Positions 10,576 to 41,771 of a stretch of 51,780 nt of DNA are shown piece after piece (position 1 is the stretch's first letter; every line of letters starts with the position of its first letter). This stretch comes from a virus (taxonomy: Duplodnaviria > Heunggongvirae > Uroviricota > Caudoviricetes). The notes beneath the pieces were generated by a model. That model did not search any database. It had not been told where the DNA came from and worked only from the letters and a program-made list of their open reading frames with translations. The DNA lies in IMG/VR virus record IMGVR_UViG_2541047930_000003. One strand, written 5' to 3'. Position numbers and translations under genes: made by a program.

Positions 10576-11337
10576 ATGGAAACCGTTTTTGATGCACTGA
10601 AAGCAATGGGAAAAGCCACGTCGGTAGAACTGGCTGCGCGACTTGATATCAGTCGTGAAGAAGTGCTGAATGAGCTGTGGGAACTTAAAAAGGCTGGCTT
10701 CGTTGATAAAAGCGTATACACCTGGCGTGTGGCTGATAACAACGTTCAGCAGGAACAGCCAGAGCAGGCAGAACTGCCGGAAGAAACCACCACGGCAACA
10801 GTAGCGAAAATCTCAGAGTGCGATTTAACCGCGACGATTGAACAACGTGGCCCACAAACGGCGGATGAACTGGCTACGTTTTTCGGCACCACATCACGCA
10901 AAGTGGCTTCAACGCTGGCAATGGCAATCAGCAAAGGCCGTCTGATTCGCGTTAATCAGAACGGTAAATTTCGTTACTGCATGCCGGGCGATGATTTACC
11001 AGCAGAGCCGAAAGCTGCATCGGTAACGGAAACTGATGGTAAAGCCTTTCCTCAACCAGCAGGTGTTGCGTTACCGGGACAGGAAGCTGCAACACAGGAA
11101 GATATTAAAACAGAAACTGTGGCGGACATTGTGCAGTCGTTGCCATCGTTTACCGAAACGCGAGCGGATGACCTCGTTCTGCCATCGCTGCATATGGCAA
11201 ACCGCGAACTGCGTCGGGCGAAAAATCATGTCCAGAAGTGGGAGCGTGTCTGCGCCGCGCTGCGGGAGCTGAACAAGCACCGGGATATTGTTCGACAGAT
11301 TACTGATTCTTCTCGCTGTGTTGCATCGGAAAAGTGA
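10576..11337 (+). CDS. Hypothetical phage protein, probable winged-helix N-terminus (253 aa)
   Basis: Met18 of ORF 10525..11337 preceded by GGGAGGA RBS. Confidence 0.5.
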
Positions 11338-11352
11338 TTGCCGGAGGCGCTT

Positions 11353-11769
11353 ATGGCAAAAGTATTTACACAAGAAGAGCGGGAAAAAATCAAGGGACAG
11401 GTTGTTGAGCTAGTACGCCGGAGTGGGCGCGAGACGTTACGGCAACTGGAAGCCAAGACAGGTGCGACAAGATATCTGATGAGCGTTCTCGCCAGAGAGC
11501 TGGTTGCCAGTGGCGATGTATACAACTCTGGCTACGGGTTATTCCCGTCTGAACAGGCTCGTAAGGACTGGCAAAATGCCCGCAAAAAACTATCTAGGGC
11601 AAAGGTGAAGAAACCATCTGTGGTTGATCCGGACCTTATCTGGTCATTACCTGACGGAGAAATACGTCGTTATGACAGGCACCAAAACATAATTTGCTGT
11701 GAGTGCCGGAAGAGCGAAGTTATGCAGCGCATACTGGCATTTTATCAGAGAAATTTTCGTTATTTATAG
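11353..11769 (+). CDS. Hypothetical phage protein (138 aa)
   Basis: Met6 of ORF 11338..11769 preceded by GGAGG RBS. Confidence 0.5.
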   Translation: MAKVFTQEEREKIKGQVVELVRRSGRETLRQLEAKTGATRYLMSVLARELVASGDVYNSGYGLFPSEQARKDWQNARKKLSRAKVKKPSVVDPDLIWSLPDGEIRRYDRHQNIICCECRKSEVMQRILAFYQRNFRYL

Positions 11770-11932
11770 ACGTTACTCGATTAAAGAGCATTAGTTCAGA
11801 TGTGAATTGACATTTTCACGGCACAGGATTGAGCTAGCGTGGTTGTCTGCTTTGTGTCAAAAGCAGATATTACCAGATTTAGACATCTATTCCCGATAGC
11901 CCTGCTCTGATGCTACACTCTGTGCTATTTTC

Positions 11933-12619
11933 ATGACCCCAATAAAAATATTTATGACTATTGCTGATTTCAAACGGCCTAAATTGGAGCTCCCAAACGG
12001 GGCAAACAAACTACTACTGCACTCTTGCTGTGCTCCATGTTCCGGTGAAGTGATGGAGGCGCTTCAGGCCTCGGGAATCGACTATACCATCTTTTTCTAC
12101 AACCCGAACATTCATCCTCAGAAAGAGTATTTAATTCGTAAGGATGAGAATATTCGCTTTGCTGAACAACACGGCGTGCCATTTATTGATGCTGATTACG
12201 ACACAGACAACTGGTTTGAACGTGCCAAAGGAATGGAATGGGAGCCCGAGAGGGGGATCCGTTGTACCATGTGTTTTGACATGCGTTTTGAGCGGACAGC
12301 GCTGTACGCTGCTGAAAATGGTTTCAGTGTGATCAGCAGTTCACTGGGCATTTCACGCTGGAAAAATATGCAGCAGGTTAACGACTGTGGGCGGCGAGCC
12401 GTCGCGCATTATCCGGGCATGGTGTACTGGGATTATAACTGGCGCAAGCAGGGCGGCTCGTCCCGCATGATTGAAATCAGCAAGCGCGAAAAATTCTATC
12501 AGCAGGAATATTGTGGCTGTGTGTATTCTCTGCGCGATACCAATCTACACCGCAAATCTCAGGGACGCCCTCTTATCAAAATTGGTCAACTCCACTACGG
12601 TAAAGAAGAGAAGGAGTGA
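11933..12619 (+). CDS. DUF208 / QueH-like protein (putative epoxyqueuosine reductase family, Fe-S), 228 aa
   Basis: N-terminal [11 protein letters not shown] motif, which I recall as the DUF208/QueH signature; further Cys (CTMCFD, YCGC); alternative start at 11954. Confidence 0.5.
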
Positions 12620-12875
12620 TTTTATGGAGCACCTTTCTTATTGATTTCATATTGGCGAGGTAGCGGGAGTTAAGTAAAATTGCTGCGGGTGCTTGAGGCT
12701 ATCTGCCTCAGGCATGAACACCAAAAGGCAGATAGAGAAAAGCCCCAGTTAACATTACGCGTCTCTGCAAGACGCTTAACATTAATCTGAGGCTCAATCT
12801 ATGCTGAACACATGTAGGTTAGCCTCTTACGTGCCGAAAGGCAAGGAGAAGCAGGCTATGAAGCAGTAAAAGGCG

Positions 12876-13013
12876 ATGTTAATCGCCCTGATCGTCATCG
12901 GTTTAACCGTCATAGTGACGGCACTGGTAACGAGGAAAGACCTCTGCGAGGTACGAATCCGAACCGGGCAGACGGAGGTCGCTGTCTTCACAGCTTACGA
13001 ACCTGAGGAGTAA
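12876..13013 (+). CDS. Hok-family type I toxin, HokD/RelF-like; canonical start disrupted by TAA at codon 4, leaving a 45-aa ORF from an internal ATG
   Basis: atg aag cag TAA aag gcg ATG tta atc...; product MLIALIVIGLTVIVTALVTRKDLCEVRIRTGQTEVAVFTAYEPEE matches the Hok TM and periplasmic domains. Confidence 0.6.
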   Translation: MLIALIVIGLTVIVTALVTRKDLCEVRIRTGQTEVAVFTAYEPEE

Positions 13014-13087
13014 GAGACCGGGCGGGAGAGTAATCTCCCGCCACCTCTGATATGTCAGGCATCCTCAACGCACCCGCACTTAACCCG

Positions 13088-13110
13088 CTTCGGCGGGTTT
13101 TTTCACGTAC
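13088..13110 (+). terminator. Rho-independent terminator after the hok locus
   Basis: cccgcttcggcgggtttttt hairpin plus T-tract. Confidence 0.65.
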
Positions 13111-13221
13111 TGTGGTTGTGAATACGATTGGTATTAGGCTATGCTAACAACATTAGCCTGACTAATTTTGTATTGACTTAATTTTTGTTAAAGAACAGGA
13201 CGAAGACGTAAGGGTACACCA

Positions 13222-13401
13222 ATGAGCTACGCACTAAAAAAACACCCGCGATTGACTATTCCCCCTCGCGATAAAAGCGTTGTGGCAGCTCCGCGCCCGG
13301 CTATCGATGAAAATTGCACTCATCGTGAGCAGGTGAAAAATGCTTTCGATTTCGGTTTTTCTCGTTACGAGAAGGCAATGGAAGATCTTTCAAAAGTGTA
13401 A
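13222..13401 (+). CDS. Small ORF (59 aa) upstream of the Doc toxin; candidate cognate antitoxin, not Phd-like by eye
   Basis: Hand translation MSYALKKHPRLTIPPRDKSVVAAPRPAIDENCTHREQVKNAFDFGFSRYEKAMEDLSKV; AAGGG RBS; stop 19 bp before the Doc ATG; below ORF-track cutoff. Confidence 0.4.
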   Translation: MSYALKKHPRLTIPPRDKSVVAAPRPAIDENCTHREQVKNAFDFGFSRYEKAMEDLSKV

Positions 13402-13419
13402 TGATGGGTATTGTGCTCT

Positions 13420-13905
13420 ATGGCTGAGATTGTTGAAGGAGTGCACTACCTTTCGGTTGATGATCTTACTGAAATTAATCGCCTTTTAATTGAGCTTCAA
13501 ACACCAGATGAACCTGTTGGTGTGCTGAGTGTTGATAATTTAAGTTCTTCTCAGTCTCGTCCCAGTATGGTTCGATGGTATGAGCAAACCAACGACATGT
13601 TTGTACTGGCATCGGTATTGATTGAAAGTCTGATTCAGAATCATCCATTTGCCAATGCAAACAAGCGCACAGCAATGATGGCTGGTGCGGTTTTTTTATT
13701 GTTAAATGGATACGAATTAACCGCACCAGGCGATGAAGTTGTGGAGATGGCTGAGGGGCTGGCCTGTAAAATTTATACACGAGAAGAGCTTGAAAATTGG
13801 TTGTGTTATTGGTCTCGTGCGTATGACAGTCGGGAATTATGTAAAACAGGCGCAACTATTGTTTTGTATGAAACTATCAAGCTTAAAATAGAACAGCAAA
13901 ACTAA
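13420..13905 (+). CDS. Doc-family (Fic/Doc) toxin (161 aa)
   Basis: HPFANANKRTA matches the Doc motif HxFx(D/N)(A/G)NKR; N-terminal region resembles P1 Doc; ATG is Met4 of ORF 13411..13905. Confidence 0.75.
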   Translation: MAEIVEGVHYLSVDDLTEINRLLIELQTPDEPVGVLSVDNLSSSQSRPSMVRWYEQTNDMFVLASVLIESLIQNHPFANANKRTAMMAGAVFLLLNGYELTAPGDEVVEMAEGLACKIYTREELENWLCYWSRAYDSRELCKTGATIVLYETIKLKIEQQN

Positions 13906-16197: not shown

Positions 16198-16273
<76 letters not shown>

Positions 16274-16276: not shown

Positions 16277-16351
<75 letters not shown>

Positions 16352-18438: not shown

Positions 18439-19896
18439 ATGAATACATCTCATGTAAGAGTTGTTACTCATATGTGTGGGTTCCTGGTTTGGCTCTATAG
18501 TCTTTCAATGTTGCCACCAATGGTTGTAGCATTGTTTTATAAAGAAAAAAGCCTGTTCGTTTTCTTTATAACTTTCGTTATATTTTTTTGCATTGGTGGC
18601 GGAGCGTGGTATACAACTAAGAAATCTGGTATTCAATTACGTACCCGTGATGGGTTTATTATAATTGTAATGTTTTGGATTTTGTTTTCTGTTATTAGTG
18701 CATTCCCTTTATGGATTGACTCAGAACTTAATTTAACGTTTATTGATGCTCTATTTGAAGGGGTTTCTGGAATAACAACAACAGGAGCAACTGTAATTGA
18801 TGATGTTAGTTCATTACCTCGGGCATATTTGTACTATCGGTCACAGTTAAATTTTATAGGTGGCTTAGGAGTTATTGTTCTGGCGGTTGCTGTATTGCCA
18901 TTATTGGGTATTGGTGGTGCAAAGCTTTATCAGTCAGAAATGCCAGGGCCATTTAAGGATGACAAACTTACTCCCCGCCTGGCCGATACGTCACGGACAC
19001 TTTGGATAACTTATTCTTTATTAGGTATTGCTTGTATTGTCTGTTATAGACTTGCAGGAATGCCTTTGTTTGATGCTATTTGTCACGGGATATCCACAGT
19101 TTCGCTTGGTGGTTTCTCAACTCATAGCGAGAGTATCGGATATTTTAATAACTATTTGGTTGAGCTGGTGGCTGGTTCTTTTTCCCTGCTATCGGCTTTC
19201 AACTTCACCCTTTGGTATATTGTTATTAGCAGGAAAACGTTAAAACCTTTAATCAGAGATATTGAACTTCGTTTCTTTCTGTTAATAGCCTTAGGGGTGA
19301 TCATTGTTACCTCTTTCCAGGTCTGGCATATAGGTATGTATGACTTGCCTGGAAGTTTTATTCATTCGTTTTTTCTTGCCAGCTCCATGCTCACTGATAA
19401 TGGTTTAGCTACGCAGGATTATGCAAACTGGCCCACGCACACGATAGTGTTTTTGCTGTTGTCAAGTTTCTTTGGGGGATGTATAGGTTCAACTTGTGGT
19501 GGAATTAAGTCACTTCGATTTCTTATACTTTTCAAACAAAGCAAACACGAGATAAACCAGCTTTCTCATCCCAGAGCGTTGTTGAGTGTAAATGTAGGAG
19601 GGAAGATAGTTACAGATCGTGTAATGAGGTCTGTATGGAGTTTCTTTTTTCTTTATACTCTCTTCACGGTGTTTTTTATACTGGTGTTAAATGGTATGGG
19701 ATATGATTTTCTTACATCATTTGCAACAGTGGCTGCATGTATTAATAATATGGGATTAGGTTTTGGGGCTACTGCATCGTCATTCGGAGTGCTTAATGAC
19801 ATTGCAAAATATTTAATGTGCATAGCTATGATTCTTGGTCGCCTTGAAATTTATCCTGTTATTATATTGTTTTCAGGTTTTTTTTGGCGCTCCTAA
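18439..19896 (+). CDS. trkG: TrkG potassium uptake protein (485 aa)
   Basis: Polytopic membrane protein recognised as Rac TrkG; Met7 of ORF 18421..19896; markedly AT-rich gene. Confidence 0.9.
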   Translation: MNTSHVRVVTHMCGFLVWLYSLSMLPPMVVALFYKEKSLFVFFITFVIFFCIGGGAWYTTKKSGIQLRTRDGFIIIVMFWILFSVISAFPLWIDSELNLTFIDALFEGVSGITTTGATVIDDVSSLPRAYLYYRSQLNFIGGLGVIVLAVAVLPLLGIGGAKLYQSEMPGPFKDDKLTPRLADTSRTLWITYSLLGIACIVCYRLAGMPLFDAICHGISTVSLGGFSTHSESIGYFNNYLVELVAGSFSLLSAFNFTLWYIVISRKTLKPLIRDIELRFFLLIALGVIIVTSFQVWHIGMYDLPGSFIHSFFLASSMLTDNGLATQDYANWPTHTIVFLLLSSFFGGCIGSTCGGIKSLRFLILFKQSKHEINQLSHPRALLSVNVGGKIVTDRVMRSVWSFFFLYTLFTVFFILVLNGMGYDFLTSFATVAACINNMGLGFGATASSFGVLNDIAKYLMCIAMILGRLEIYPVIILFSGFFWRS

Positions 19897-20033
19897 TATA
19901 TGGCTGATTTATAATTGTGAGTTTAATATTATATTGACTCACTCATTGATCCAATACCTAACTTTACCAGCAACACCTCCGCCCCCAGTAGCACTGGCTG
20001 CTGGGGTGCGTTTTATTCATAAAGCAAGGCTGT

Positions 20034-21940: not shown

Positions 21941-23035
21941 ATGAGCAGACCGGACTGGGGGGCGTTGCAGCAGGAGTATATTGCTGAATACACCCGCTCC
22001 GGTATATCTCCGGTGGCATGGTGTGAAGCAAGGGGACTGAATTACGCAACAGCCCGTCGTTACATCAAAAAACCTCCGAAAAATGCGCAGACAGAAATGC
22101 GCAAAACTGCGCAAAAAAGTGCGCAGAAAAAATCTGCGCAGACTGCACAAAAGCGGAACGAAAAATCTCAGGAAAAAAAGCCAGTATTCGATGCGGGCCT
22201 GAATGAGGGCGACGCGGAGGAATTTTCGTTCTGTCCCGATGAATTCGGCATTTCTGACCAGCAGGCTAAGTTTGCGATGCTTGTTGCTCAGGGGAAAAAG
22301 CCGACAGAGGCGTACCGACTAGCCGGTTATGAGGGGCAAGGTGCGACAGCTAACAGCAACGCCAGTCGTATGCTTAGAAATGCCAGGGTTTTTCGCGCTA
22401 TCAGCTACTTCCGCAATCAGTACCAGAAACGCTATACCGCAGACCTGGATTTACTGGTGAGTCAGTTGATGGCCATTGTCCTGGCCGACCCCAATCAGCT
22501 TGCACAATTTCGCCGTGTTAACTGCCGTTATTGCTGGGGCGAGAATCATCTCTACCAGTGGCGCGATATAGCAGAATTCGACAAGGCAGCGGCGCAGGCT
22601 TCCAGAGATGGCAAACCCGAACCGGAATATGGAGGCCTCGGCTTTGTTGATAACGCCATACCCAATCCGGACTGCCCGAAGTGCTGCGGTGAGGGAACGG
22701 GACAGCTTTATATGGCTGATACCACTCTGCTTGATGGGGATGCGCGGCAATTATATGCAGGGGCAAAACTCGGAAAATTCGGCGTTGAGATCCTGCTGGA
22801 GGATAAGGCTGCCGCCCGGCGTGAATTGTTGCGTTTGCTTTCTGCTGGTGGGGCTTTATGTGCAGATAAGCGGCTACAGGAACTGGAAATTGAACGGCGC
22901 AGAATGGAAAACCAGAAGCTGCGCAAAGAGATCGAAACGGTGGAAGATAATGAACATCCCCAGCCTGTGGCGATCAATATTAATGTGGTTGATGCCAGAG
23001 TAAGGAGTGATGAAGATGATCTCTCCGACGCTTAA
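21941..23035 (+). CDS. Terminase small subunit (364 aa) with N-terminal HTH and C-terminal Cys-rich zinc-ribbon-like region
   Basis: GLNYATARRYIKK HTH typical of TerS; CxxC pairs (CRYCWGE, CPKCCGE); directly upstream of large terminase. Confidence 0.7.
   Translation: MSRPDWGALQQEYIAEYTRSGISPVAWCEARGLNYATARRYIKKPPKNAQTEMRKTAQKSAQKKSAQTAQKRNEKSQEKKPVFDAGLNEGDAEEFSFCPDEFGISDQQAKFAMLVAQGKKPTEAYRLAGYEGQGATANSNASRMLRNARVFRAISYFRNQYQKRYTADLDLLVSQLMAIVLADPNQLAQFRRVNCRYCWGENHLYQWRDIAEFDKAAAQASRDGKPEPEYGGLGFVDNAIPNPDCPKCCGEGTGQLYMADTTLLDGDARQLYAGAKLGKFGVEILLEDKAAARRELLRLLSAGGALCADKRLQELEIERRRMENQKLRKEIETVEDNEHPQPVAININVVDARVRSDEDDLSDA
22084..22140 (+). repeat. Five TGCGCA motifs at 10-15 bp spacing inside terS (candidate pac/terminase recognition array)
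   Basis: aaatgcgcagacagaaatgcgcaaaactgcgcaaaaaagtgcgcagaaaaaatctgcgca. Confidence 0.45.
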
Positions 23036-28971: not shown

Positions 28972-29148
28972 ATGGCCGGATTAACTAAAGAGCAAAGAGC
29001 ACAGCGTGAAGCCGCACAAAAAACGCAAATTGAGTTAGTGGTTATGGTGACCGATTATCAGATGTTTCCCGGCGCACCAACTATCGCTAATGTTCATCCT
29101 GATGAAGTTGACAACTGGAAAGCTATGGGCTGGAAAACTCAGGAGTAA
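28972..29148 (+). CDS. Small head-associated protein (58 aa), below ORF-track cutoff
   Basis: Hand translation MAGLTKEQRAQREAAQKTQIELVVMVTDYQMFPGAPTIANVHPDEVDNWKAMGWKTQE; GGAGGG RBS. Confidence 0.45.
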   Translation: MAGLTKEQRAQREAAQKTQIELVVMVTDYQMFPGAPTIANVHPDEVDNWKAMGWKTQE

Positions 29149-29151
29149 CAC

Positions 29152-29547
29152 ATGATCACTTACGTGACCTGTGATGACGTTGATAATGCGTTTGGGAACG
29201 CCTGGACGAGTGAGAACGCTAAAAATAAAGCTGTTTTAATGGCTAATGCCTGGCTTAATGGCTTCAACCTGAAAATTAACCCATCCCGTATTCCGGAAGA
29301 GGTAAAACTTGCGGGAGCATATGCAGCCAGAATTGCCTCATTCGGTAAGTTGTTTCAGCAGAAAAATGATTCTGGCGTTGTTATCAGTAAAGCCGTGTCG
29401 GCTGACGGGGTCAGTGTATCGAAATCATTTGCTGAGTTGCCAGCAAACAGCACTGCATTGCTTGAACCCGATTTACAGCTTGCGATAGCACTGCTGAAAC
29501 CGTACGGACTTAGTCGCTCACAAGTCAGGGTTGTGAGGGGGGGATAA
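29152..29547 (+). CDS. Head-tail connector / DNA packaging protein (131 aa)
   Basis: Position and size in head-tail joining block. Confidence 0.5.
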   Translation: MITYVTCDDVDNAFGNAWTSENAKNKAVLMANAWLNGFNLKINPSRIPEEVKLAGAYAARIASFGKLFQQKNDSGVVISKAVSADGVSVSKSFAELPANSTALLEPDLQLAIALLKPYGLSRSQVRVVRGG

Positions 29548-29930
29548 TGGGGCTTCGTGAAGAGATTCAGTCAGAGGTTGCCGCTGCTTTTGATGAGGAT
29601 TTAGCGGACGCCGTGAGTGATTTTTCTGGTTCTTACGTTACGCACCGGCACTGGGATCCTGTGACGGAAACTGGCGGCGAATCCACCGCAATCTATACCG
29701 GGCGAGGCGTGTTGACACGTTATAAGCTGGGCAGAATTGATGGGATTAATATTTTGCATGGTGACCTTAAATTAACCGCTCTGGTATGCGAGGTTACGGA
29801 TAAACCCGCTGTCGACCATATTATTGAGATTTATGATCCTGTATCAAGGCAGTTACAACGATACGAGGTAATTACAGCGAGTGTAGATCCTTCCGCATCA
29901 GTTTACTCTATCCAGTTAAGGAGAGCGTAA
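29547..29930 (+). CDS. Head-tail adaptor / head closure protein (127 aa)
   Basis: Translationally coupled (TAATG) in head-tail joining block. Confidence 0.5.
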   Translation: MGLREEIQSEVAAAFDEDLADAVSDFSGSYVTHRHWDPVTETGGESTAIYTGRGVLTRYKLGRIDGINILHGDLKLTALVCEVTDKPAVDHIIEIYDPVSRQLQRYEVITASVDPSASVYSIQLRRA

Positions 29931-30311
29931 ATGGAAAAGGCATGGGATATAGAACCGTCAATATTTGCCGGGATGATTGAGGAAGATGTGGGGCTGAAGA
30001 TTCGCTACATCGCTATGCAGATTCTTACTGCTATTGATATTGCTGCTCCGGTTGATACCGGACGTTTCAGAAATAACAACCTGGTGTCGTTACAGCATCC
30101 CGATTTTGGTATATCTGATAACGTGGATCCGAACGGTACGATTGCGGTTCAGCGTGGGATCGGGGTTATTTCGAAAGCTGCAAATTACGGAGTTATTTAT
30201 ATCCAGAATAACCTTCCTTATGCAGAGGCTCTTGAAAACGGTCATTCACAACAAGCGCCAACTGGCGTGTATGCCAACGCTTTTCATAGTGTTTTACAGG
30301 CTTACAAATGA
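29931..30311 (+). CDS. Neck / tail completion protein (126 aa)
   Basis: Position; translational coupling with neighbours. Confidence 0.5.
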   Translation: MEKAWDIEPSIFAGMIEEDVGLKIRYIAMQILTAIDIAAPVDTGRFRNNNLVSLQHPDFGISDNVDPNGTIAVQRGIGVISKAANYGVIYIQNNLPYAEALENGHSQQAPTGVYANAFHSVLQAYK

Positions 30312-30700
30312 CGTTTACTGAAATCAGAAATACGGTTATTTCCAGAATGACGGCACAGACGATTATTGATGGAAAAGACGTATTGTATCCGAACGGGCCA
30401 ACGTTCGATCCTTCCGGTAAATTAATCTGGGCGCGGTTAAGTAATATTCCCGGGCAGGCTGGAGTTAATGAAATTGGCGCGGGGCCGGTTGTTTATCGCA
30501 CGGGGATAATCATTATTCAGTTATTTGTCCCCGCAGGTTCTGGTTCAAAACTCATTACTGAGACAGCCGATAAATTGCGGGAACTGTTTGAGTTTCAGGA
30601 TGACGATCGTCTCAGTTACCAGGCTGTTTCCTCAATAGCCGTTGGCGAAAAGAATGGCTGGTTCCAGCTTAATCTTCAAATTCCATATCGCGCGCTCTAG
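30308..30700 (+). CDS. Tail terminator / tail attachment protein (130 aa)
   Basis: Position immediately upstream of major tail protein. Confidence 0.5.
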   Translation: MTFTEIRNTVISRMTAQTIIDGKDVLYPNGPTFDPSGKLIWARLSNIPGQAGVNEIGAGPVVYRTGIIIIQLFVPAGSGSKLITETADKLRELFEFQDDDRLSYQAVSSIAVGEKNGWFQLNLQIPYRAL

Positions 30701-30726
30701 CGCAATTAATGACATAGGAGGCTCCT

Positions 30727-31689
30727 GTGAGTTCAGGTGCAAAGGTTATCTCGGCATTTATCCGGGAGACAGTTGCAGGCACTACGCCAGCAAGTGGTGA
30801 CTGGAGTTTATTAAAACGAACAAGCTGGGGAGTAAAACCCACCCAGAATAAAGGCGAAAATAATGAGATTGGTGGCTCCCGGATGGCTCAGGGGGCGACG
30901 CCTGGCACTGTGGATGTCGGCGGTGATGTTGGTACCAAATTTCGCTGGGGTCAACATGATGATTTTCTTGCATCCTGTTTCGGCGCGGAATGGTCAGGCG
31001 ATTCTCTGACAATGGGGAATGAGCGAATAACATTTTCTCTGGCGACCTATGCGTCCGATGTCGGAATTGCCTCTGTCGTCAGAGGAGCGCAGGTTGGCTC
31101 ATGGAAAATGCAGATCCCTAACGACGGCGATATTACAGCGACCGTAACCTTTGCCGGGCTGGACTGGGAATCAAAGGCCGATGATACGAATTTTATCAAA
31201 GGCGAACCTGTGGATAGTGCAGGAAAGCTACGTTATTCGTTTAAGGAGGTTTCAGCAGTAAGCCTGAATGGTGTTGCCGGAGGTAACGGTTTTTGTATCG
31301 ACAGTTTTGATATTCAGTTCGATAACAAACTCCAGACACAGCGTTGTATCGGGACTGGCTCGCCTTATGCAGGAGCAAATATTCCGACTACTTTTACACC
31401 GTCCGGTACGGTGACGCTTTCATGGTCTAAAGCTGCGTGGGAAATCTGGAGTAAAACACTGACTGGAGAAACAGTTCCGTTCAGCTTCACGCTTTCGAAT
31501 GGAGAGGGGGCATACACTTTCAGTTTCCCGAAGGTTCAGGTGTCAGGTGAATGGCCTGATGGGGGTAATACCGACATTATCCAGGTTCAATTGAGCATTA
31601 CCGCAGCAGATGAAGCACCTACGATAACCAGAAAAAAAGCCTCCCCGGCTGCCGTGATCGCAAAAGCCAGTGCTGAGGCGATTAGTTGA
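30727..31689 (+). CDS. Major tail (tube) protein (320 aa)
   Basis: GTG start preceded by GGAGG RBS; position upstream of G/GT chaperone and tape measure. Confidence 0.65.
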   Translation: MSSGAKVISAFIRETVAGTTPASGDWSLLKRTSWGVKPTQNKGENNEIGGSRMAQGATPGTVDVGGDVGTKFRWGQHDDFLASCFGAEWSGDSLTMGNERITFSLATYASDVGIASVVRGAQVGSWKMQIPNDGDITATVTFAGLDWESKADDTNFIKGEPVDSAGKLRYSFKEVSAVSLNGVAGGNGFCIDSFDIQFDNKLQTQRCIGTGSPYAGANIPTTFTPSGTVTLSWSKAAWEIWSKTLTGETVPFSFTLSNGEGAYTFSFPKVQVSGEWPDGGNTDIIQVQLSITAADEAPTITRKKASPAAVIAKASAEAIS

Positions 31690-31737
31690 TTTTCCGTTAT
31701 TCCCCCTGTGGTACTGCACTACAGGGGGGCGCATTGA

Positions 31738-32199
31738 ATGAGGTTATGGATGTTTATTCTTAATCAGAAAATTATCATCGGTGGTGAACGCTGGTTTACC
31801 CCAATGAAGGACTTAAAACCTGTAGACGGGTTAAAACTGTTGGTGGCAAGCAGCGATAACGATCAGTATCGCTCCCGTAATGCATTAATCCGTCGCCACA
31901 TTGAGAAAATGGATGCCAGTTTGCACGTCGGAACGAAGGAGTTTGATATTGCAAAGGTTTCCGAGGTGGATTCTGTTGATGATTTACTCATTGATAATGC
32001 TGCTCGTTATCTGCTGAAAGACTGGAAAGGGGTTGGTGAACTGGTTGATGGTGTTGAGGTTGCACTGGAATATACGCCAGAACGAGGGATCGCGCTGCTT
32101 AAGCAGAATCCGGAGTTGTACTGGCAGATCCTTGCAGAAGCAGCCAGCATCGCCCAGGGTAAAGAGCAGCAGAAGCAGGATACGATAAAAAAGCCATAG
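31738..32199 (+). CDS. Tail assembly chaperone (gpG-like, 153 aa)
   Basis: Position; ends in slippery heptamer A AAA AAG followed 2 codons later by stop. Confidence 0.7.
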   Translation: MRLWMFILNQKIIIGGERWFTPMKDLKPVDGLKLLVASSDNDQYRSRNALIRRHIEKMDASLHVGTKEFDIAKVSEVDSVDDLLIDNAARYLLKDWKGVGELVDGVEVALEYTPERGIALLKQNPELYWQILAEAASIAQGKEQQKQDTIKKP

Positions 32200-32507
32200 C
32201 CGCCCAGCGGTGGTTATCGGAGTTCGGGGGAGAAAAGGGTGAAAAGGCAAGATGGAAGCGAGAAAAACTCAGGTTGCCACCGATACCGGAACCAGAAATA
32301 GACCCGGTGCTTAAGGAATTGTTGTACGCCTATTCGGTAATATCCCGTGCCCGACGTTATGCTGGAATGACTGGGGTGCCTTTGCCTTTATCTCTGACAG
32401 AGATAAATGAATATTTAGCCACTCATCCGGTATTGATTGAGCGCGATGAATTTGAAGCAGTGATCTTTGCACTGGATGACCAGTATTTTCAGGAGCAGTG
32501 TGTGTAG
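31738..32507 (+). CDS. Tail assembly chaperone G-T fusion made by programmed -1 frameshift at A_AAA_AAG (~32187-32193)
   Basis: -1 frame is open from the slippery site through ORF 32274..32507. Confidence 0.65.
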
Positions 32508-32625
32508 TTGTTAATTACGTACACTCTGTTACAGAGATGTGATGGTGTCTTTAATTAAATCGATGATGCTCCTGGAGAAAAGCATTGCGTGGCCTCGTAA
32601 TCGCTATATCTACTATTATGTCGCC

Positions 32626-32650
32626 TGAAACCCACTTCGGTGGGTTTTTT
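32626..32650 (+). terminator. Terminator-like hairpin just upstream of the tape measure gene
   Basis: aaacccacttcggtgggttttttg. Confidence 0.45.
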
Positions 32651-32670
32651 GTTGTCAGGAGTTTTAATAA

Positions 32671-35600
32671 ATGGCAGAGCAAACCTCGCGTCTCGCAATA
32701 ATTATTGATAGCACTGGAGCGAAAAATAATGCTGACAATCTGACCTCCTCATTAGTCAAAATGACGCAGGCTGGGAAAACTGCTGCAAATAGCGCAGGGA
32801 AAGTGACTAAGGCAACAGAAGATGAGAAGAACGCGCTCGCAAAATTAAAAGCAGCTATTGATCCAGTTGGTGCCGCAATTGATACTGTCGGTCGACGCTA
32901 TTCTGAATTAAAGAAATTTTTCGATAAAGGGCTTATTGATAAAGAAGAATATGAATTTCTTGTCCGTAAACTTAATGAAACCACAGAGGAATTGAGCGGG
33001 GTTGCGCAAGCGCAGAGAGAAGCCGAGAAGGCCGGAAAACTTGCTGCCGCCCAGCAGGAAGCGCAGGCTCAGGCCTTTCAAAGAATGCTGGACAAGATCG
33101 ACCCTCTGGCTGCGGCGCTAAGAAATCTTGAACAACAGCAGGATGAACTTAATGCTGCGTTTGCATCCGGGAAAATAAATGGTTCTCAGTTTGAGAATTA
33201 TAGCCGAAAAATACAGGAAACACGGCGAGAGCTTACCGGAGAGGCTCAGGCAGAGCGAGAAGCAGCAAAAGCGCATGATGAACAGGTTGTTGCTTTGCAA
33301 CGTCTGATTGCTCAACTTGACCCTGTCGGAACTGCTTTTAACCGCCTGACAGAGCAGCAAAAGCAACTCAGCGAAGCAAAAGCCAAGGGGATGCTTTCTC
33401 CTGAAATGTATGAGGAGCTTTCAGGAAAACTTCGTGCTATGCGGAGTGAGCTTGAGGCTACTCAATCGCAACTAAGCAAAACCGGAATGTCGGCAAAACA
33501 AACGGCTTTTGCTATGCGCATGTTGCCTGCACAAATGACGGATATTGTTGTTGGGTTGTCCACTGGTCAGTCGCCATTTATGGTGTTAATGCAGCAGGGC
33601 GGCCAGCTAAAAGATATGTTCGGTGGGATTGGCCCGGCAATCAAAGGTGTAGGTTCTTATGTGCTGGGATTAATTAATCCTTTTACCCTGGCCGCAGCAG
33701 CCGTTGGCGTCTTAGGGCTGGCTTACTATAAAGGCTCTCAGGAGCAGAACGAATTTAATAAATCTCTTATTCTTACCGGAAATCAGTTGGGGACAACCAG
33801 CGGGCAATTGGCCGATATAGCTCAACGTGCCGGGAATGCGGCTGATTCGACAACTGGCGCTGCGGCGGCAGTATTAAACCAGCTTGTGCGTTCGGGAAAG
33901 GTAGCGAGCAGTTCGCTGGAGCAAGTGACGACAGCGATAGTAAAAACGAGCGAAGTAACAGGAATATCAACCGAACAACTGGTTAATGACTTCAATGAAA
34001 TTGCAAAGGATCCTGTCAGTGCTATATCAAAACTTAATGATCAGTACCATTTTCTGACACTTGCGACTTATAACCAAATTAAGGCGCTACAGGATGAAGG
34101 GAACCAGCAGGAGGCCGCCCGCATTGCGACAGAAGCATACTCATCCTCAATGATCCAGCGCACCAACCAGATTAAAGAAAATCTTGGTTATCTTGAGACT
34201 GCATGGAAAGCTGTCGCAGACTCCGCAAAATGGGCATGGGATTCCATGCTGGATATTGGCCGTGAGGCCTCCCTTGATCAAAAAATCTCAGATGTTCTCC
34301 GTCAAATTGATGAAATAGAAAAAAATACCCGACCCGGAGTTTTCGGGTTAGGTGGCATTGGAGATGGCGGAGCTCAAAATAAAAAGCTGGCACGATTAAA
34401 GCAGCAATTGGGCGTACTTCAAGCAGAAAAAATTGCTCAGGACGTACTAAATTCATCAATAAACGATTACAACAAGCGACAACAGGAAGGAATTGAACTC
34501 AGACAGAGAGCAGATGCTTTTTCAAAACAATATCAGACCCGGGAGCAGCAGAGAGCTAGTGAACTTGCAAAACTGGAAAAGCTAAAGAATCAGTATTCAA
34601 AGGAAGAATATAATAATCTTATCGCTCAAATAAATGAGCGTTACGAAGATCCAAAGCAACCAAAGGCGAAAGGTTATTCGGATGATGCTGCCCAACGAAT
34701 GATTGATCATCTGAATCAACAGAATGCGTTACTAAGTTCACAAGCTGAATTGACCGTTAAATTAAGTTCCTCTGAACAGGAACTGGTTAAGTGGCGTCAG
34801 CAGATTGCCGACCTGGAGTCACGACCGTCATCGAAATTAACCCAAGAGCAGAAATCACTTCTCTTACACCGGGAAGAAATAACCGCGTTGATGGAGAAAA
34901 ATGTTGCGATTGAAAAAAATAACAGGCTAATCAAAGAATCCGCCGAAATAGCCGCATGGCGTGATTCATTGCAGGCTTCGATTGATAATCGTCAGCAGGG
35001 GTATGATATTCAGATTGCTGGTTATGGGGTTGGCGATAAAAATCAGCAACGCCAGCAGGAATTACTGCGGATTGAACGTGAATATAACAATCAGCGTCTG
35101 CAACTTGAACGTGACTATGCAGATAAATCCCGTGGAATGTCAAATCATGTTTTTCAGGAGAAAATGCAGGCTCTGAATGATGCTCTGGAACGAGAAAAAG
35201 AAATTGTCAGCCAGAAAAACGAGCAGCTCGATATTCTGGCAGGAGACTGGATTAGTGGTGCCTCCCAAGGATTCAATAACTGGCTGGATGACACTAAGGA
35301 TATCGGTGCGCAGATAAAATCAACCACGACTCAGATGTTTGATGGGATGACCGATGCGCTAGGTGATTTTGTCACGACAGGCAAGGCAAATTTTCGTTCT
35401 TTCGCTACTTCCGTGATTTCGGATCTTAGTCGAATTGCATTAAAGGCTTCAATTACTGGGATTTTCGACAGCATTAGTAACAGTTCTTCTGGGGGTATTT
35501 TAGGAACTATCGGGAGTGCTATTAGTAAATTTATTCCGAATGCAAAGGGCGGTGTTTATGAGTCTCCGTCATTGAGTACATATTCGAACGGTATTTATGA

Positions 35601-35904
35601 CTCCCCGCAATTTTTTGCTTTTGCAAAAGGAGCTGGTGTTTTTGGTGAGGCTGGACCGGAAGCTATTATGCCATTAACGCGAACTTCCGATGGTTCTCTT
35701 GGTGTCAGAGCTATTAATAGTAAAAGTGGTAATGGAGGCAGAGATATTACTTATGCCCCTGTATACCAAATCACTATTCAAAATGACGGCCAGAATGGAG
35801 AGATTGGTCCTCAGGCAATAAAAGCACTTATGGGGATGGTTGATCAGCGGGTGCAGGGCGCTCTGTTAAATATGCGACGTGATGGAGGAATGTTAAGTGG
35901 CTAA
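32671..35904 (+). CDS. Tail tape measure protein (1077 aa)
   Basis: Very long helical, Ala/Gln/Glu-rich protein; position between G/GT and gpM-like gene. Confidence 0.9.
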
Positions 35905-35938
35905 TACGGAAGAATTTTACTGGTTACCAGAGGATGGA

Positions 35939-36235
35939 ATGAAAACAGAAAATAAGCCATCGATAAAAACTGTAAGATTTGGCGATGGTTATGAACAACG
36001 AAGCCCAAACGGACTTAATCATTCTCTGCGTGTTTTTACCTGTGATTTCAGGGTTGAGGCGAATGAACGTAATTCATTTGAACTGTTTCTGGCTCGGCAT
36101 GGAGGCTATAAATCTTTTTTTTGGCGCCCGCCGGGTATTAACAGAAAAATCAGAGTGGTGTGTCGAACGTGGTCAGCGACAGAACATATCACCTATACCG
36201 ATTTTTCATGTCAGTTTGACGAAGTGGTGATCTGA
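35939..36235 (+). CDS. Minor tail protein M (lambda gpM-like)
   Basis: KTVRFGDGYEQRSPNGLN ... HGGYKSFFWRPP ... FDEVV resemble lambda gpM; Met15 of ORF 35897..36235 with RBS. Confidence 0.85.
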   Translation: MKTENKPSIKTVRFGDGYEQRSPNGLNHSLRVFTCDFRVEANERNSFELFLARHGGYKSFFWRPPGINRKIRVVCRTWSATEHITYTDFSCQFDEVVI

Positions 36236-36933
36236 TGCAGGACATACGACAGGAAACACTGAATGAATGTATCCGTGCGGAGCAGTCGGCCAGCGTGGTG
36301 CTCTGGGAAATTGATCTGACAGAGGTCGGTGGGGAGCGTTACTTTTTCTGCAATGAGCAGAACGAAAAAGGTGAACCGGTTACCTGGCAGGGGCGAAAGT
36401 ATCAGGCGTACCCCATTCAGGGAAGCGGCTTTGAGATGAACGGTAAGGGCAGCAGCGCACGTCCCACACTTAAGGTATCAAACCTGCACGGCATGGTCAC
36501 CGGGATGGCGGAAGATCTGCAGAGTCTGGTCGGCGGAACGGTGGTCCGGCGTAAGGTTTACGCCCGTTTTCTGGATGCGGTGAACTTCGTCAACGGAAAC
36601 AGCGAAGCCGATCCGGAGCAGGAGGTGATCAGCCGCTGGCGCATCGAGCAGTGCAGCGAACTGAACGCGGTTAGCGCGGCCTTTGTGCTGTCCACGCCGA
36701 CGGAAACGGATGGTGCTGTTTTTCCGGGGCGCATCATGCTGGCCAACACCTGCACCTGGACCTATCGCGGTGATGAGTGCGGTTATAGCGGTCCGGCGGT
36801 CGCGGATGAATATGACCAGCCGACGTCCGATATCACGAAGGATAAATGCAGCAAATGCCTGAGTGGCTGTAAGTTTCGCAATAACGTCGGCAACTTTGGC
36901 GGCTTCCTTTCCATTAACAAACTTTCGCAGTAA
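36235..36933 (+). CDS. Minor tail protein L (lambda gpL-like, 232 aa)
   Basis: Lambda gpL-like sequence and position after M. Confidence 0.85.
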   Translation: MQDIRQETLNECIRAEQSASVVLWEIDLTEVGGERYFFCNEQNEKGEPVTWQGRKYQAYPIQGSGFEMNGKGSSARPTLKVSNLHGMVTGMAEDLQSLVGGTVVRRKVYARFLDAVNFVNGNSEADPEQEVISRWRIEQCSELNAVSAAFVLSTPTETDGAVFPGRIMLANTCTWTYRGDECGYSGPAVADEYDQPTSDITKDKCSKCLSGCKFRNNVGNFGGFLSINKLSQ

Positions 36934-36938
36934 ATCCC

Positions 36939-37682
36939 ATGACAGAGACAGAATCAGCGATTCTGGCGCACGCCCGGCGATGTGCGCCAGCGGAGTCGTG
37001 CGGCTTCGTGGTGAGAACGCCGGAGGGGGAAAGATATTTTCCCTGCGTGAATATTTCCGGTGAGCCGGAGGCGTATTTCCGGATGGCTCCGGAGGACTGG
37101 CTGCAGGCAGAGATGCAGGGTGAGATTGTGGCGCTGGTCCACAGCCACCCCGGTGGTCTGCCCTGGCTGAGTGAGGCCGACCGGCGGCTGCAGGTGCAGA
37201 GTGATTTGCCGTGGTGGCTGGTCTGCCGCGGGGCGATTCATAAGTTCCGCTGTGTGCCGCATCTCACCGGGCGGCGCTTTGAGCACGGGGTGACGGACTG
37301 TTACACGCTGTTCCGGGACGCTTACCATCTGGCGGGAATTGAGATGCCGGATTTTCATCGCGGGGATGACTGGTGGCGTAACGGCCAGAATCTCTATCTT
37401 GACAATATGGAGGCGACTGGTTTTTACCGTGCCGCACTGACAGAGGCGCAGCCGGGCGATGTGCTGCTGTGCTGCTTTGGTTCATCGGTGCCGAATCATG
37501 CCGCCATTTACTGCGGCGACGGCGAGCTGCTGCACCATATTCCTGAACAACTGAGCAAACGAGAGAGGTATACCGACAAATGGCAGCGACGCACACACTC
37601 CCTCTGGCGTCACCGGGCATGGCACGCATCTGCCTTTACGGGGATTTGCAACGATTTGGCCACCGCATCGACCTTCGTGTGA
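36939..37682 (+). CDS. Tail assembly protein K (lambda gpK-like, JAB/MPN plus NlpC/P60)
   Basis: HSHPGG JAB motif; Cys/His peptidase motifs; position. Confidence 0.85.
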   Translation: MTETESAILAHARRCAPAESCGFVVRTPEGERYFPCVNISGEPEAYFRMAPEDWLQAEMQGEIVALVHSHPGGLPWLSEADRRLQVQSDLPWWLVCRGAIHKFRCVPHLTGRRFEHGVTDCYTLFRDAYHLAGIEMPDFHRGDDWWRNGQNLYLDNMEATGFYRAALTEAQPGDVLLCCFGSSVPNHAAIYCGDGELLHHIPEQLSKRERYTDKWQRRTHSLWRHRAWHASAFTGICNDLATASTFV

Positions 37683-38227
37683 AAACGGGAGCCGAAGCTA
37701 TCCGGGCGCTGGCCACGCAGCTCCCGGCGTTTCGTCAGAAACTGAATGAGGGCTGGTATCAGGTGCGCATTGCCGGGCGTGATGCAGGCGAAAACGAATT
37801 ATCTGCCCGTCTTAATGAGCCGCTGGCAAATGGTGCCGTGATCCACATCGTACCGCGTCTGGCGGGTGCCAAAAGTGGCGGTGTTTTTCAGGCAGTGCTG
37901 GGGGCTGCGCTGATTGCGGTGGCATGGTGGAACCCTGTGGGCTGGCTGGGTGCCGCGGCTGTATCGGGTATGTATGCGGCAGGGGCCAGTATGATCCTGG
38001 GCGGTGTGGCGCAGATGCTGGCACCGAAAGCCAGAACTCCCCGCACACAGACAACGGATAACGGCAAACAGAACACGTATTTCTCCTCACTGGATAACAT
38101 GGTTGCCCAGGGGAATGTTCTGCCCGTTCTGTACGGTGAAATGCGCGTGGGGTCACGCGTGGTATCTCAGGAGATCAGCACGGCAGACGAAGGGGATGGT
38201 GGTCAGGTTGTGGTGATTGGTCGATGA
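37580..38227 (+). CDS. Tail assembly protein I (lambda gpI-like)
   Basis: Lambda gpI-like sequence; overlaps 3' end of K. Confidence 0.8.
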   Translation: MAATHTLPLASPGMARICLYGDLQRFGHRIDLRVKTGAEAIRALATQLPAFRQKLNEGWYQVRIAGRDAGENELSARLNEPLANGAVIHIVPRLAGAKSGGVFQAVLGAALIAVAWWNPVGWLGAAAVSGMYAAGASMILGGVAQMLAPKARTPRTQTTDNGKQNTYFSSLDNMVAQGNVLPVLYGEMRVGSRVVSQEISTADEGDGGQVVVIGR

Positions 38228-38287
38228 TGCAAAATATTTTATGTGAAACCGCCTCCGGGCGGTTTTGTCGTTTATGGAGCATGACGA

Positions 38288-41200
38288 ATGGGTAAAGGCA
38301 GCAGTAAGGGGCATACCCCGCGCGAAGCGAAGGACAACCTGAAGTCCACGCAGTTGCTGAGTGTGATCGATGCCATCAGCGAAGGGCCGATTGAAGGTCC
38401 GGGGGATGGATTAAAAAGCGTGCTGCTGAACAGTACGCCGGTGCTGGACAGTGAGGGGAATACCAATATCTCCGGCGTCACGGTGGTGTTCCGGGCAGGT
38501 GAGCAGGAGCAGACACCGCCGGAGGGATTTGAATCCTCCGGCTCCGAGACGGTGCTGGGTACGGAAGTGAAATATGACACGCCGATCACCCGGACCATCA
38601 CGTCGGCAAACATTGACCGTCTGCGTTTTACCTTCGGTGTGCAGGCACTGGTGGAAACCACCTCAAAGGGTGACCGGAATCCGTCGGAAGTCCGCCTGCT
38701 GGTTCAGATACAACGTAACGGTGGCTGGGTGACGGAAAAAGACATTACCATTAAGGGCAAAACCACGTCGCAGTATCTGGCCTCGGTGGTGGTGGATAAC
38801 CTGCCGCCGCGCCCGTTTAATATCCGGATGCGCAGGATGACGCCGGACAGCACCACAGACCAGCTGCAGAACAAAACGCTCTGGTCGTCATACACCGAAA
38901 TCATCGATGTGAAACAGTGCTACCCGAACACGGCACTGGTCGGCGTACAGGTGGATTCGGAGCAGTTCGGCAGCCAGCAGGTGAGCCGTAATTATCATCT
39001 TCGCGGGCGCATTCTGCAGGTGCCGTCGAACTATAACCCGCAGACGCGGCAATACAGCGGTATCTGGGACGGAACGTTTAAGCCAGCATACAGCAACAAC
39101 ATGGCCTGGTGTCTGTGGGATATGCTGACCCACCCGCGCTACGGCATGGGTAAACGTCTTGGTGCGGCAGATGTGGATAAATGGGCGCTGTACGTCATCG
39201 GCCAGAATTGCGACCAGTCGGTGCCGGACGGCTTTGGTGGCACGGAGCCGCGCATCACCTGTAACGCTTACCTGACTACGCAGCGTAAAGCGTGGGATGT
39301 TCTCAGCGATTTCTGCTCGGCGATGCGCTGTATGCCGGTATGGAACGGGCAGACGCTGACGTTCGTGCAGGACCGACCGTCGGATAAGGTGTGGACCTAT
39401 AACCGCAGTAATGTGGTGATGCCGGATGATGGCGCGCCATTCCGCTACAGCTTCAGCGCCCTGAAGGACCGCCATAATGCCGTTGAGGTGAACTGGATTG
39501 ACCCGAATAACGGCTGGGAGACGGCGACAGAGCTTGTTGAAGATACGCAGGCCATTGCCCGTTACGGTCGTAATGTCACGAAGATGGATGCCTTTGGCTG
39601 TACCAGCCGGGGGCAGGCACACCGCGCCGGGCTGTGGCTGATTAAAACGGAACTGCTGGAGACGCAGACCGTGGATTTCAGCGTGGGTGCTGAAGGGCTT
39701 CGCCATGTACCGGGCGATGTCATTGAAATCTGCGATGATGACTATGCCGGTATCAGCATCGGCGGGCGCGTGCTGGCGGTAAACAGCCAGACCCGGACGC
39801 TGACGCTCGACCGTGAAATCACTCTGCCATCCTCCGGTACCACGCTGATAAGCCTGGTTGACGGAAGTGGCAATCCGGTCAGCGTGGAGGTTCAGTCCGT
39901 CACCGACGGCGTGAAGGTGAAAGTGAGCCGTGTTCCTGACGGCGTTGCTGAATACAGCGTGTGGGGGCTGAAGCTGCCGACGCTGCGCCAGCGCCTGTTC
40001 CGCTGCGTGAGTATCCGTGAGAACGACGACGGCACGTATGCCATCACCGCCGTGCAGCATGTACCGGAAAAAGAAGCCATCGTGGATAACGGGGCGCACT
40101 TTGACGGCGACCAGAGCGGCACGGTGAATGGTGTCACGCCGCCAGCGGTGCAGCACCTGACCGCCGAAGTCACCGCAGACAGCGGGGAATATCAGGTGCT
40201 GGCGCGCTGGGACACGCCGAAGGTGGTGAAGGGCGTGAGCTTCCTGCTCCGTCTGACCGTAACAGCGGATGACGGCAGTGAGCGGCTGGTCAGCACGGCC
40301 CGGACGACGGAAACCACATACCGCTTCAGGCAGCTGGCGCTGGGAAATTACAGGCTGACAGTCCGGGCGGTAAATGCATGGGGACAGCAGGGCGATCCTG
40401 CATCGGTATCGTTCCGGATCGCCGCACCGGCAGCGCCGTCGCGGATTGAGCTGACGCCGGGCTATTTTCAGATAACCGCCACGCCGCATCTTGCCGTTTA
40501 TGACCCGACGGTACAGTTTGAGTTCTGGTTCTCGGAAAAGCGGATTACCGATATCAGGCAGGTTGAAACCACAGCCCGCTATCTTGGTACGGCGCTGTAC
40601 TGGATAGCCGCCAGTATCAATATCAAACCGGGCCATGATTATTACTTTTATATCCGCAGTGTGAACACCGTTGGCAAATCGGCATTCGTGGAGGCCGTCG
40701 GTCGGGCGAGCGATGATGCGGAAGGTTACCTGGATTTTTTCAAAGGCAAGATAACCGAATCCCATCTCGGCAAGGAGCTGCTGGAAAAAGTCGAGCTGAC
40801 GGAGGATAACGCCAGCAGACTGGAGGAGTTTTCGAAAGAGTGGAAGGACGCCAACGATAAGTGGAATGCCATGTGGGCTGTCAAAATTGAGCAGACCAAA
40901 GACGGCAAACATTATGTCGCGGGTATTGGCCTCAGCATGGAGGACACGGAGGAAGGCAAACTGAGTCAGTTTCTGGTTGCCGCTAACCGTATCGCATTTA
41001 TTGACCCGGCAAACGGGAATGAAACGCCGATGTTTGTGGCGCAGGGCAATCAGATATTCATGAACGACGTGTTCCTGAAGCGCCTGACGGCCCCCACCAT
41101 TACCAGTGGTGGCAGTCCTCCGGTATTTTCCCTGACATCAGACGGAAAGCTGACCGCTAAAAATGCGGATATCAGTGGCAGTGTGAATGCGAACTCAGGA

Positions 41201-41701
41201 ACGCTCAACAATGTCACGATTAACCAGAACTGTACGATTAAGGGCATGCTGGAGGCGACCCAGGTCAGAGGGGATTTCGTTAAAGCTGTATCAAAAGCCT
41301 TCCCGAAAAAAGTCGGTACGTGGGGTAACACGGAAACACCAGACGGTACGGTTACAGTCACCATCAGCGATGATCATAACTTTGACCGCCAGATTATTAT
41401 TCCGCCCATTATTTTTAACGGTATAGCGTATGACGATCCGGGGAGCGGAAATAACCCAGGAGGCACGCGATACACGGGTTATGGTTTTGAAGTTCGCAAA
41501 AACGGCATATTAATCGCATCCAGAGAAACTAAAGGGGCCATTCCCGGTAGTTACAGTGCAGTTATTGATATGCCTAGTGGTGGTGGTAGCGTCACTCTGG
41601 AGTTTAAGATTTTCCAGAAAGGCAATCAGGGGGCAGGCAATATCACCGACTGTACGGTGATTGTGACCAAAAAAGCGGCTTCCGGCATCAGTATTCGTTG
41701 A
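38288..41701 (+). CDS. Host specificity protein J (central tail fibre, 1137 aa)
   Basis: N-terminus [37 protein letters not shown] matches lambda J; length 1137 aa. Confidence 0.92.
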
Positions 41702-41721
41702 AATATTTATAACCCCAATAA

Positions 41722-41750
41722 AGGGCGTCAGGAATGACGCCTTTTTTATT
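41722..41750 (+). terminator. Rho-independent terminator after J
   Basis: aaagggcgtcaggaatgacgccttttttatt. Confidence 0.65.
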
Positions 41751-41771
41751 GCAGAAAAGCGAGAGGTAATT

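Follow-up and report, generated by a model that had tools for sequence, protein, structure and literature searches.

The sequence analyzed here (hereafter the window) is a 51,780-nt stretch of viral DNA, IMG/VR record IMGVR_UViG_2541047930_000003. On its plus strand, positions 11933 to 12619 form an uninterrupted open reading frame of 228 aa, in which an 11-residue peptide containing a CCAPC motif is encoded at 12011-12043 (Table 1). A preliminary description of this locus had taken the whole frame as the gene. The frame is indeed uninterrupted, but the gene, which we call queH, probably starts 21 nt downstream, at the ATG at 11954, and would thus span 11954-12619 and encode 221 aa. To make this assignment, four other alleles were aligned with the window over the upstream region. 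The E. coli O7:H15 ST70 allele has ATT, followed by an in-frame TAA, in place of the ATG of 11933, and it keeps the ATG of 11954 and all sequence downstream of it. The start annotated by RefSeq in E. coli APEC O1 also corresponds to position 11954.

Table 1. Coordinates of queH and associated features in the window.
Feature	Position	Strand	Basis or remark
queH coding sequence (QueH-type epoxyqueuosine reductase)	11954..12619	+	221 aa + stop; PF02677, RefSeq, 7lc5, dN/dS
In-frame upstream extension (start of the preliminary description)	11933..11953	+	Probably 5' UTR, not coding
CCAPC motif peptide (Cys25, Cys26, Cys29; 221-aa numbering)	12011..12043	+	34-sequence alignment
RCTMC motif (Arg103, Cys104, Cys107)	12260..12274	+	R103, C104, C107 invariant
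YCGCVYS motif (Tyr186, Cys187, Gly188, Cys189, Ser192)	12509..12529	+	C187, G188, C189, S192 invariant
Basic C-terminal tail, 25 residues	12542..12616	+	Proteobacterial QueH subfamily; absent from T. maritima QueH
TGCTACACT, extended -10-like element (TGn + TACACT), candidate queH promoter	11911..11919	+	35 nt upstream of ATG
10-bp hairpin in the DUF977-queH spacer, 5' of the candidate promoter	11844..11869	+	TGTCTGCTTT / AAAGCAGATA, loop GTGTCA, no U-tract

The DUF208/QueH family membership that had been proposed from the N-terminal motif was borne out by the Pfam profile PF02677 (QueH, formerly DUF208; also IPR003828), which matched the product over profile positions 1-174 of 175 with 220.6 bits and an E value of 1.9e-65, against a curated cut-off of 23.5 bits. 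RefSeq names the protein at the matching position in the APEC O1 prophage 'epoxyqueuosine reductase QueH' (WP_021554705.1). The identity of the gene is therefore already public, and as a member of a known enzyme family it is of low novelty. A scan of the product against NCBIfam returned no match, which reflects the content of that library and is not counter-evidence to the family. PHROGs assigned the product to phrog_3217, labeled 'unknown function'; the PHROG 3217 profile covers the protein only from about residue 40 on, which leaves the CCAPC motif outside it.

To place the conserved residues, the prophage protein was aligned with 33 diverse QueH members that had come out of an exhaustive search in a library of 1.84 billion proteins, the most distant of them 33% identical. 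All 15 columns that are invariant in this 34-sequence alignment are present in the prophage protein (C25, C26, N52, E58, R62, E99, R103, C104, C107, K137, Q184, C187, G188, C189, and S192), and it shares P28, C29, and Y186, each conserved in at least 90% of the sequences. The cysteines, whose alignment the preliminary description had suggested as a check, are thus all in place, as are the other invariant residues. Li and colleagues are said to have found in 2021 that the cysteines of the CCxPC, RCxxC, and YCGC motifs hold a [4Fe-4S] cluster and an adjacent iron. The protein ends in a basic tail in which N197, R200, R205, I208, G211, and Y215 are invariant among 27 proteobacterial homologs and which is missing or unrelated in the distant members of the 34-sequence alignment. 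That this tail binds tRNA is only a guess.

A sequence search matched the Thermotoga maritima QueH structure 7lc5 (E 5e-22). An AlphaFold2 model of the prophage protein had a pLDDT of 73.4, which is moderate confidence, and a pTM of 0.74; when this model was compared with the PDB by Foldseek, the top five matches were all T. maritima QueH entries (E ~1e-9, TM 0.76-0.77 normalized to the target), followed by the distant PP-loop-type folds of TtuA and LarE with E values of 3.6e-5 and weaker. The prophage protein and T. maritima QueH (7lc5, 7lc7, and 9deu) share the predicted fold, the length class, the invariant residues, and a full-length profile match. They differ in overall sequence (~30% identity), in location, the one being encoded by a prophage and the other by the chromosome, in the basic tail, which is typical of proteobacterial members including the prophage copy, and at one motif position, where T. 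maritima has Asp13 and the prophage protein has Cys29. Cysteine is the family norm at this position, and T. maritima is the exception. Since the T. maritima residues that align with C25 and C29, C9 and D13, are those mutated (C9S and D13N) in PDB entries 9d86 and 9dco, C25 and C29 are likely to be mechanistically important. Every feature of QueH membership that can be tested in silico was found in the prophage protein, and it is very probably an active QueH.

Over its first 24.8 kb, the window is 99.9% identical to a prophage that adjoins ttcA in E. coli APEC O1 and carries intR, xisR, ralR, recT, recE, kilR, sieB, ydaT, and ydaV. This APEC O1-like prophage is a full-length Rac-type lambdoid prophage. 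Within it, queH has the replication genes on one side and the late-gene regulator region on the other, a position equivalent to lambda nin and in agreement with the nin-like location given in the preliminary description. The window is not APEC O1 itself: identity is 99.9% in the head-to-early region and 94-97%, with gaps, in the tail region (29000-46000), and the small-terminase open reading frame (21941-23035, 364 aa) is intact in the window, whereas its APEC O1 counterpart contains an internal stop and is marked as a pseudogene by RefSeq. As in K-12 Rac, trkG (~18440-19900), which encodes a potassium transporter, lies between the lysis and packaging genes. The right end of the window (~46990-51780, mapped to APEC O1 at 99% identity) holds the cytolethal distending toxin type IV operon cdtABC, followed by genes for an alpha/beta hydrolase and an omptin-family protease; with cdtABC aboard, the queH prophage is toxin-converting.

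In every context examined, queH was 3' of ydaV, a DUF1627 gene, and a DUF977 gene, in both Rac-type (recE/kilR) and Qin-type (dicB/ydfC) prophages. The cargo on its 3' side depended on the strain and consisted of hokD, an NgoMIV-type restriction-modification pair, or a DUF1971 gene. In the window, this position is occupied by a hok/sok type I toxin-antitoxin module (12687-13013), with an Rfam sok match at 12687-12863 (119 bits) and a 45-aa Hok open reading frame at 12876-13013, a stretch that matches the sokW region of Stx phages. Further downstream, an AT-rich segment (13222-13905, GC 0.36-0.44) contains an open reading frame (~13420-13905) assigned by RefSeq to the death-on-curing (Doc) toxin family and, before it, a 59-aa open reading frame (13222-13401) that could encode the antitoxin. 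In E. coli O157:H7 Z1769, hok/sok is replaced by genes for an NgoMIV-family restriction endonuclease and a DNA cytosine methyltransferase (locus L011, 7851-9861). The site just 3' of queH is a cargo-exchange hot spot. Upstream, the N-terminal ~45 residues of the DUF1627 protein (10576-11337) gave weak PADLOC matches to CARF/Csa3-type winged-helix regions (best E 7e-5), probably through a generic wHTH domain.

The setting of queH resembles that of phage morons and lysogenic-conversion genes such as lom and bor, or cdt in the same prophage: the gene is accessory, occupies a variable position flanked by conserved modules, has a host-type function, and is preceded by a candidate promoter of its own. 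Unlike these genes, queH encodes neither a surface nor a virulence factor but an enzyme that modifies tRNA, an own terminator was not found, and its GC content is not distinct from that of its flanks. Queuosine (Q) is placed in tRNAs with a GUN anticodon. As the preliminary description stated, the phage tRNAs, tRNA-Thr(UGU) at 16198-16273 and tRNA-Gly(UCC) at 16277-16351, are not queuosine substrates, neither anticodon being GUN, and no link between them and queH was seen.

The preliminary description also held a phage copy to be unexpected, given that E. coli itself uses QueG. The host gene is indeed universal, with queG found in all 5426 complete E. coli genomes, so that every queH carrier has two non-orthologous enzymes for this step. 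The phage copy is, however, neither rare nor unannotated. It recurred in related prophages, being carried by 995 of the 5426 genomes (18%), in 1-2 copies per genome, nearly all of them chromosomal, and it was near full length in 985 of the carriers. These include ST131, O157:H7, O111:H8, EAEC 042, and ST95/APEC strains. In K-12 Rac, a truncated ydaW is followed directly by rzpR, rzoR, and trkG, and queH is absent; K-12 Rac lost queH through deletion, which accounts for its omission from the K-12-based picture of the pathway.

Among 50,697 GenBank phage records, the lambdoid Escherichia phage HannyBb was the only convincing isolated phage with queH. Its protein is 97% identical to that of the window and is annotated 'hypothetical protein' (PP925841.1, 33011-33697). 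Most other 'phage' records with QueH homologs look like host DNA or unannotated fecal fragments and were not counted as phage-borne; the large host-like records include the 328-kb 'Acinetobacter phage MD-2021a' and the 282-kb 'Staphylococcus phage SA 1306 Kay'. IMG/VR held 216 viral contigs with a QueH relative, and the best 80 of these 216 were all of the E. coli prophage type, with 99-100% identity and an intact open reading frame in 79. Homologs of QueA, QueG, and QueH were all reported to be missing from the viruses analyzed in a survey of viral 7-deazaguanine genes (Hutinet 2019, PMC6884629), and a full-text literature search found no paper on an E. coli prophage QueH. With the PHROG 3217 and HannyBb labels uninformative and the survey reporting no QueH in the viruses it covered, there is an annotation gap that would be easy to close.

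The closest relatives of the prophage protein outside E. coli point to its origin. A prophage copy in E. albertii is 100% identical at the protein level, followed by chromosomal proteins of Scandinavium (92%), Kluyvera (91%), and Enterobacter (89-90%). Other Enterobacterales QueH proteins are 80-87% identical (Providencia, 84%; Photorhabdus, 80%), and those of Sphingomonas, Paracoccus, Stenotrophomonas, and Neisseriaceae are 76-80% identical. The subfamily is thus unusually conserved, with 76-80% protein identity across Gamma-, Beta-, and Alphaproteobacteria. A 77% match in a contig labeled Bacillus subtilis SK7B5 looks like contamination or mislabeling. In species-representative loci outside E. 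coli and E. albertii, none of the window's prophage neighbors was present. The flanks of queH in Enterobacter and Scandinavium contain genes for a pseudouridine synthase, a chorismate mutase, a GGDEF protein, and an SDR-family protein; Providencia queH adjoins tmcA, near purC, and Photorhabdus queH adjoins benE, a non-phage context. In none of the five species compared (Providencia, Photorhabdus, Enterobacter, Scandinavium, and Kluyvera) did an E. coli prophage gene flank chromosomal queH, and in the four of them whose neighbors were scanned with Pfam these were housekeeping or non-phage genes, whereas the prophage copy lies between the DUF977 gene and hok/sok. The high identity (80-92% for chromosomal Enterobacterales QueH) and the non-phage contexts of the relatives mark the phage gene as a recently captured enterobacterial housekeeping queH.

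Comparison of upstream regions identified a candidate promoter. All five E. coli and phage alleles share one 13-nt block, TCTGATGCTACAC, without a single difference, even where the remaining upstream sequence is unrelated, and this block has the extended -10 form, TGn followed by TACAAT or TACACT. The O7:H15 allele has a different insert upstream, and homology restarts exactly at this block. When the prophage copies were compared with chromosomal queH of Scandinavium, Kluyvera, and Enterobacter, GCTAC was the only invariant run upstream. Scandinavium, Kluyvera, and Enterobacter quasihormaechei have TGCTACAAT or TGCTACACT, other Enterobacter strains have one-base variants, and a longer sequence, CTCTGATGCTACA, is common to Scandinavium and the prophage. 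In the closest relatives, TGCTACA[AC]T (TGCTACAMT) or a one-base variant of it occurs at -40 to -44 from the ATG. Because this -10-like element is common to the prophage and chromosomal copies (Scandinavium, Kluyvera, and Enterobacter) at a fixed distance of ~42 nt upstream, queH appears to have been captured together with its native promoter and may be transcribable independently of the phage early operon.

A generic promoter scan found no two-hexamer promoter and no -35 element near queH, the candidate having come from the comparative alignment, and a generic scan of 11300-13300 found no terminator-like site. An Rfam scan of 11600-13300 at a permissive threshold detected no riboswitch (preQ1, cobalamin, or other) upstream, the only match being the sok RNA downstream. 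The predicted 5' leader (11926-11990) is short and AT-rich, and its structure does not exceed that of shuffled controls (z +0.76); the Providencia leader is likewise AT-rich and without a Shine-Dalgarno sequence. A hairpin in the spacer between the DUF977 gene and queH is seen in a predicted fold of 11770-11925 (-42.5 kcal/mol, z -2.0); HannyBb has it as well, and the ST131 and O157 alleles have it in part.

Substitution patterns indicate how the gene has fared since its capture. Against the ST131 / O157 allele, the window's queH has 12 synonymous and 1 non-synonymous changes (dN/dS 0.02); against the HannyBb allele, 24 and 4 (dN/dS 0.04); and against the O7:H15 allele, 41 and 8 (dS 0.39, dN/dS 0.04). 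The comparison with chromosomal Scandinavium queH gave a dN/dS of 0.03, and the values among prophage alleles are equally low. The gene is under strong purifying selection and is maintained for protein function while in prophages. These values bear on the idea that queH is neutral or hitchhiking cargo, brought in by illegitimate recombination and spread with successful prophage modules without a function of its own. Redundancy with the universal queG, a slot that freely swaps cargo such as hokD, the NgoMIV-type restriction-modification pair, or the DUF1971 gene, and the loss of queH from K-12 without known harm would all fit such a gene. The observed dN/dS (0.02-0.04), in which synonymous changes outnumber non-synonymous ones by as much as 41 to 8, does not. 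Truncated copies are almost absent from the 995 carrier genomes, and the catalytic motifs of the window's protein are all intact. We consider neutral cargo improbable.

A function could instead be exerted for the phage. QueH made from the early-right operon after induction or infection would raise the Q content of host tRNA-Asp, -Asn, -His, and -Tyr and would keep translation of phage genes accurate even when the host is without cobalamin, an explanation compatible with a role in the lysogen. queH is co-oriented with, and lies between, replication and late-regulator genes, a terminator separating it from the upstream genes was not found, and the free-living isolated phage HannyBb keeps it. Given this sense orientation within the early-right operon, queH is possibly expressed mainly after induction. 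The -10-like element retained from chromosomal ancestors speaks against a purely phage-directed role, however, and the lytic cycle is short for re-modifying a tRNA pool. The use of NAU and NAC codons in the early genes, whose mapping is correct, is unremarkable (0.57 NAU), a figure that is uninformative as a test of a translation motive; the late-gene values are unreliable, having been taken at APEC O1 coordinates although the tail region of the window departs from APEC O1. On balance, a gene kept for the benefit of the phage seems unlikely, though less so than neutral cargo.

QueG and QueH catalyze the same reaction, the conversion of epoxyqueuosine (oQ)-tRNA to Q-tRNA. QueG (YjeS), which uses cobalamin and a [4Fe-4S] cluster, and the cobalamin-independent QueH, both present in the same cell, have unrelated folds and cofactors. 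In E. coli, oQ-tRNA is made via Tgt and QueA. To our knowledge, E. coli has no de novo cobalamin synthesis. The gut is rich in corrinoids, so B12 limitation there may be uncommon. The oQ-to-Q step of E. coli was shown to need cobamide (Payne 2015, PMC4646009, citing Frey 1988). QueG is one of four cobamide-dependent E. coli enzymes, and loss of queG had no growth phenotype in one reported condition (PMC11841063), so Q may offer little advantage over oQ. A pairing of the two enzymes has precedent: S. aureus has both QueG and QueH, and it has been suggested that their expression tracks the available cofactor; some streptococci likewise have both.

The best explanation, to which we assign a probability of roughly 0.6, is that the prophage gene is a captured, catalytically competent queH that gives lysogens a B12-independent conversion of oQ to Q. 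A lambdoid phage lineage would have taken up queH and its native promoter from a related Enterobacteriaceae chromosome, and the gene would now ride in the accessory slot just 3' of the replication genes of Rac-type and Qin-type prophages. Its product would reduce the epoxide of oQ34 in tRNA-Asp, -Asn, -His, and -Tyr to Q by means of its iron-sulfur site, serving the lysogen as a second, B12-independent route to finish Q and freeing the Q status of its tRNAs from cobamide supply and uptake. The analysis shows the family membership, the intact catalytic motifs, the fold, the origin, the distribution, and the purifying selection; we infer that the enzyme is active in E. coli, that it is expressed in the uninduced lysogen, and that B12 independence is of benefit. 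For the physiological role as such, in which the lysogen finishes Q when cobamide is scarce or its uptake is lost, we put the odds at even or slightly better.

A role in 7-deazaguanine chemistry of DNA had been mentioned as speculative in the preliminary description and found no favor here. In that case the substrate of QueH would be phage or host DNA with 7-deazaguanine bases, or some other epoxide or nucleoside, and the reaction would belong to anti-restriction or anti-defense chemistry. Phages do modify DNA via the preQ0 branch of the same metabolic pathway family, with clusters comprising DpdA, FolE, QueC, QueD, and QueE (Hutinet 2019, PMC6884629), and the slot beside queH often holds defense or addiction cargo. 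In the matching APEC O1 prophage, however, none of the signature genes of such clusters is annotated, neither a DpdA/TGT-like transglycosylase nor the preQ0-synthesis genes FolE, QueC, QueD, and QueE, and QueF is not annotated there either. QueH itself had no PADLOC match, and its 80-92% identity to housekeeping enzymes leaves little room for a new specificity. We also know of no DNA modification that contains the oQ epoxide. This activity is therefore very improbable, well below the other alternatives.

The textbook account of queuosine biology in E. coli stems from K-12. About 18% of sequenced E. coli carry a second, cobalamin-independent enzyme for the last step of the pathway, one that is missing from K-12 Rac, and the gene provides a clean case of phage capture of a housekeeping tRNA-modification gene together with a candidate promoter, kept under strong purifying selection. 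That prophage queH is a genuine lysogenic-conversion gene for the translation apparatus is a tentative conclusion, which we rate at a little under even odds. If it is correct, QueH would be the first documented virus-borne enzyme of the tRNA-specific part of the Q pathway, which the 2019 survey reported as absent (PMC6884629). The biological question raised by this distribution is why lambdoid prophages in ~18% of E. coli maintain a cobalamin-independent oQ reductase. If the lysogen is indeed served, about one-fifth of E. coli strains, among them ST131, ST95/APEC, O157:H7, and EAEC 042, would finish queuosine without vitamin B12, and K-12 and other queH-negative strains would get no further than epoxyqueuosine in the absence of cobamides or of BtuB-mediated uptake. 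The status of the tRNA wobble base would then be a strain-variable, phage-transmitted trait.
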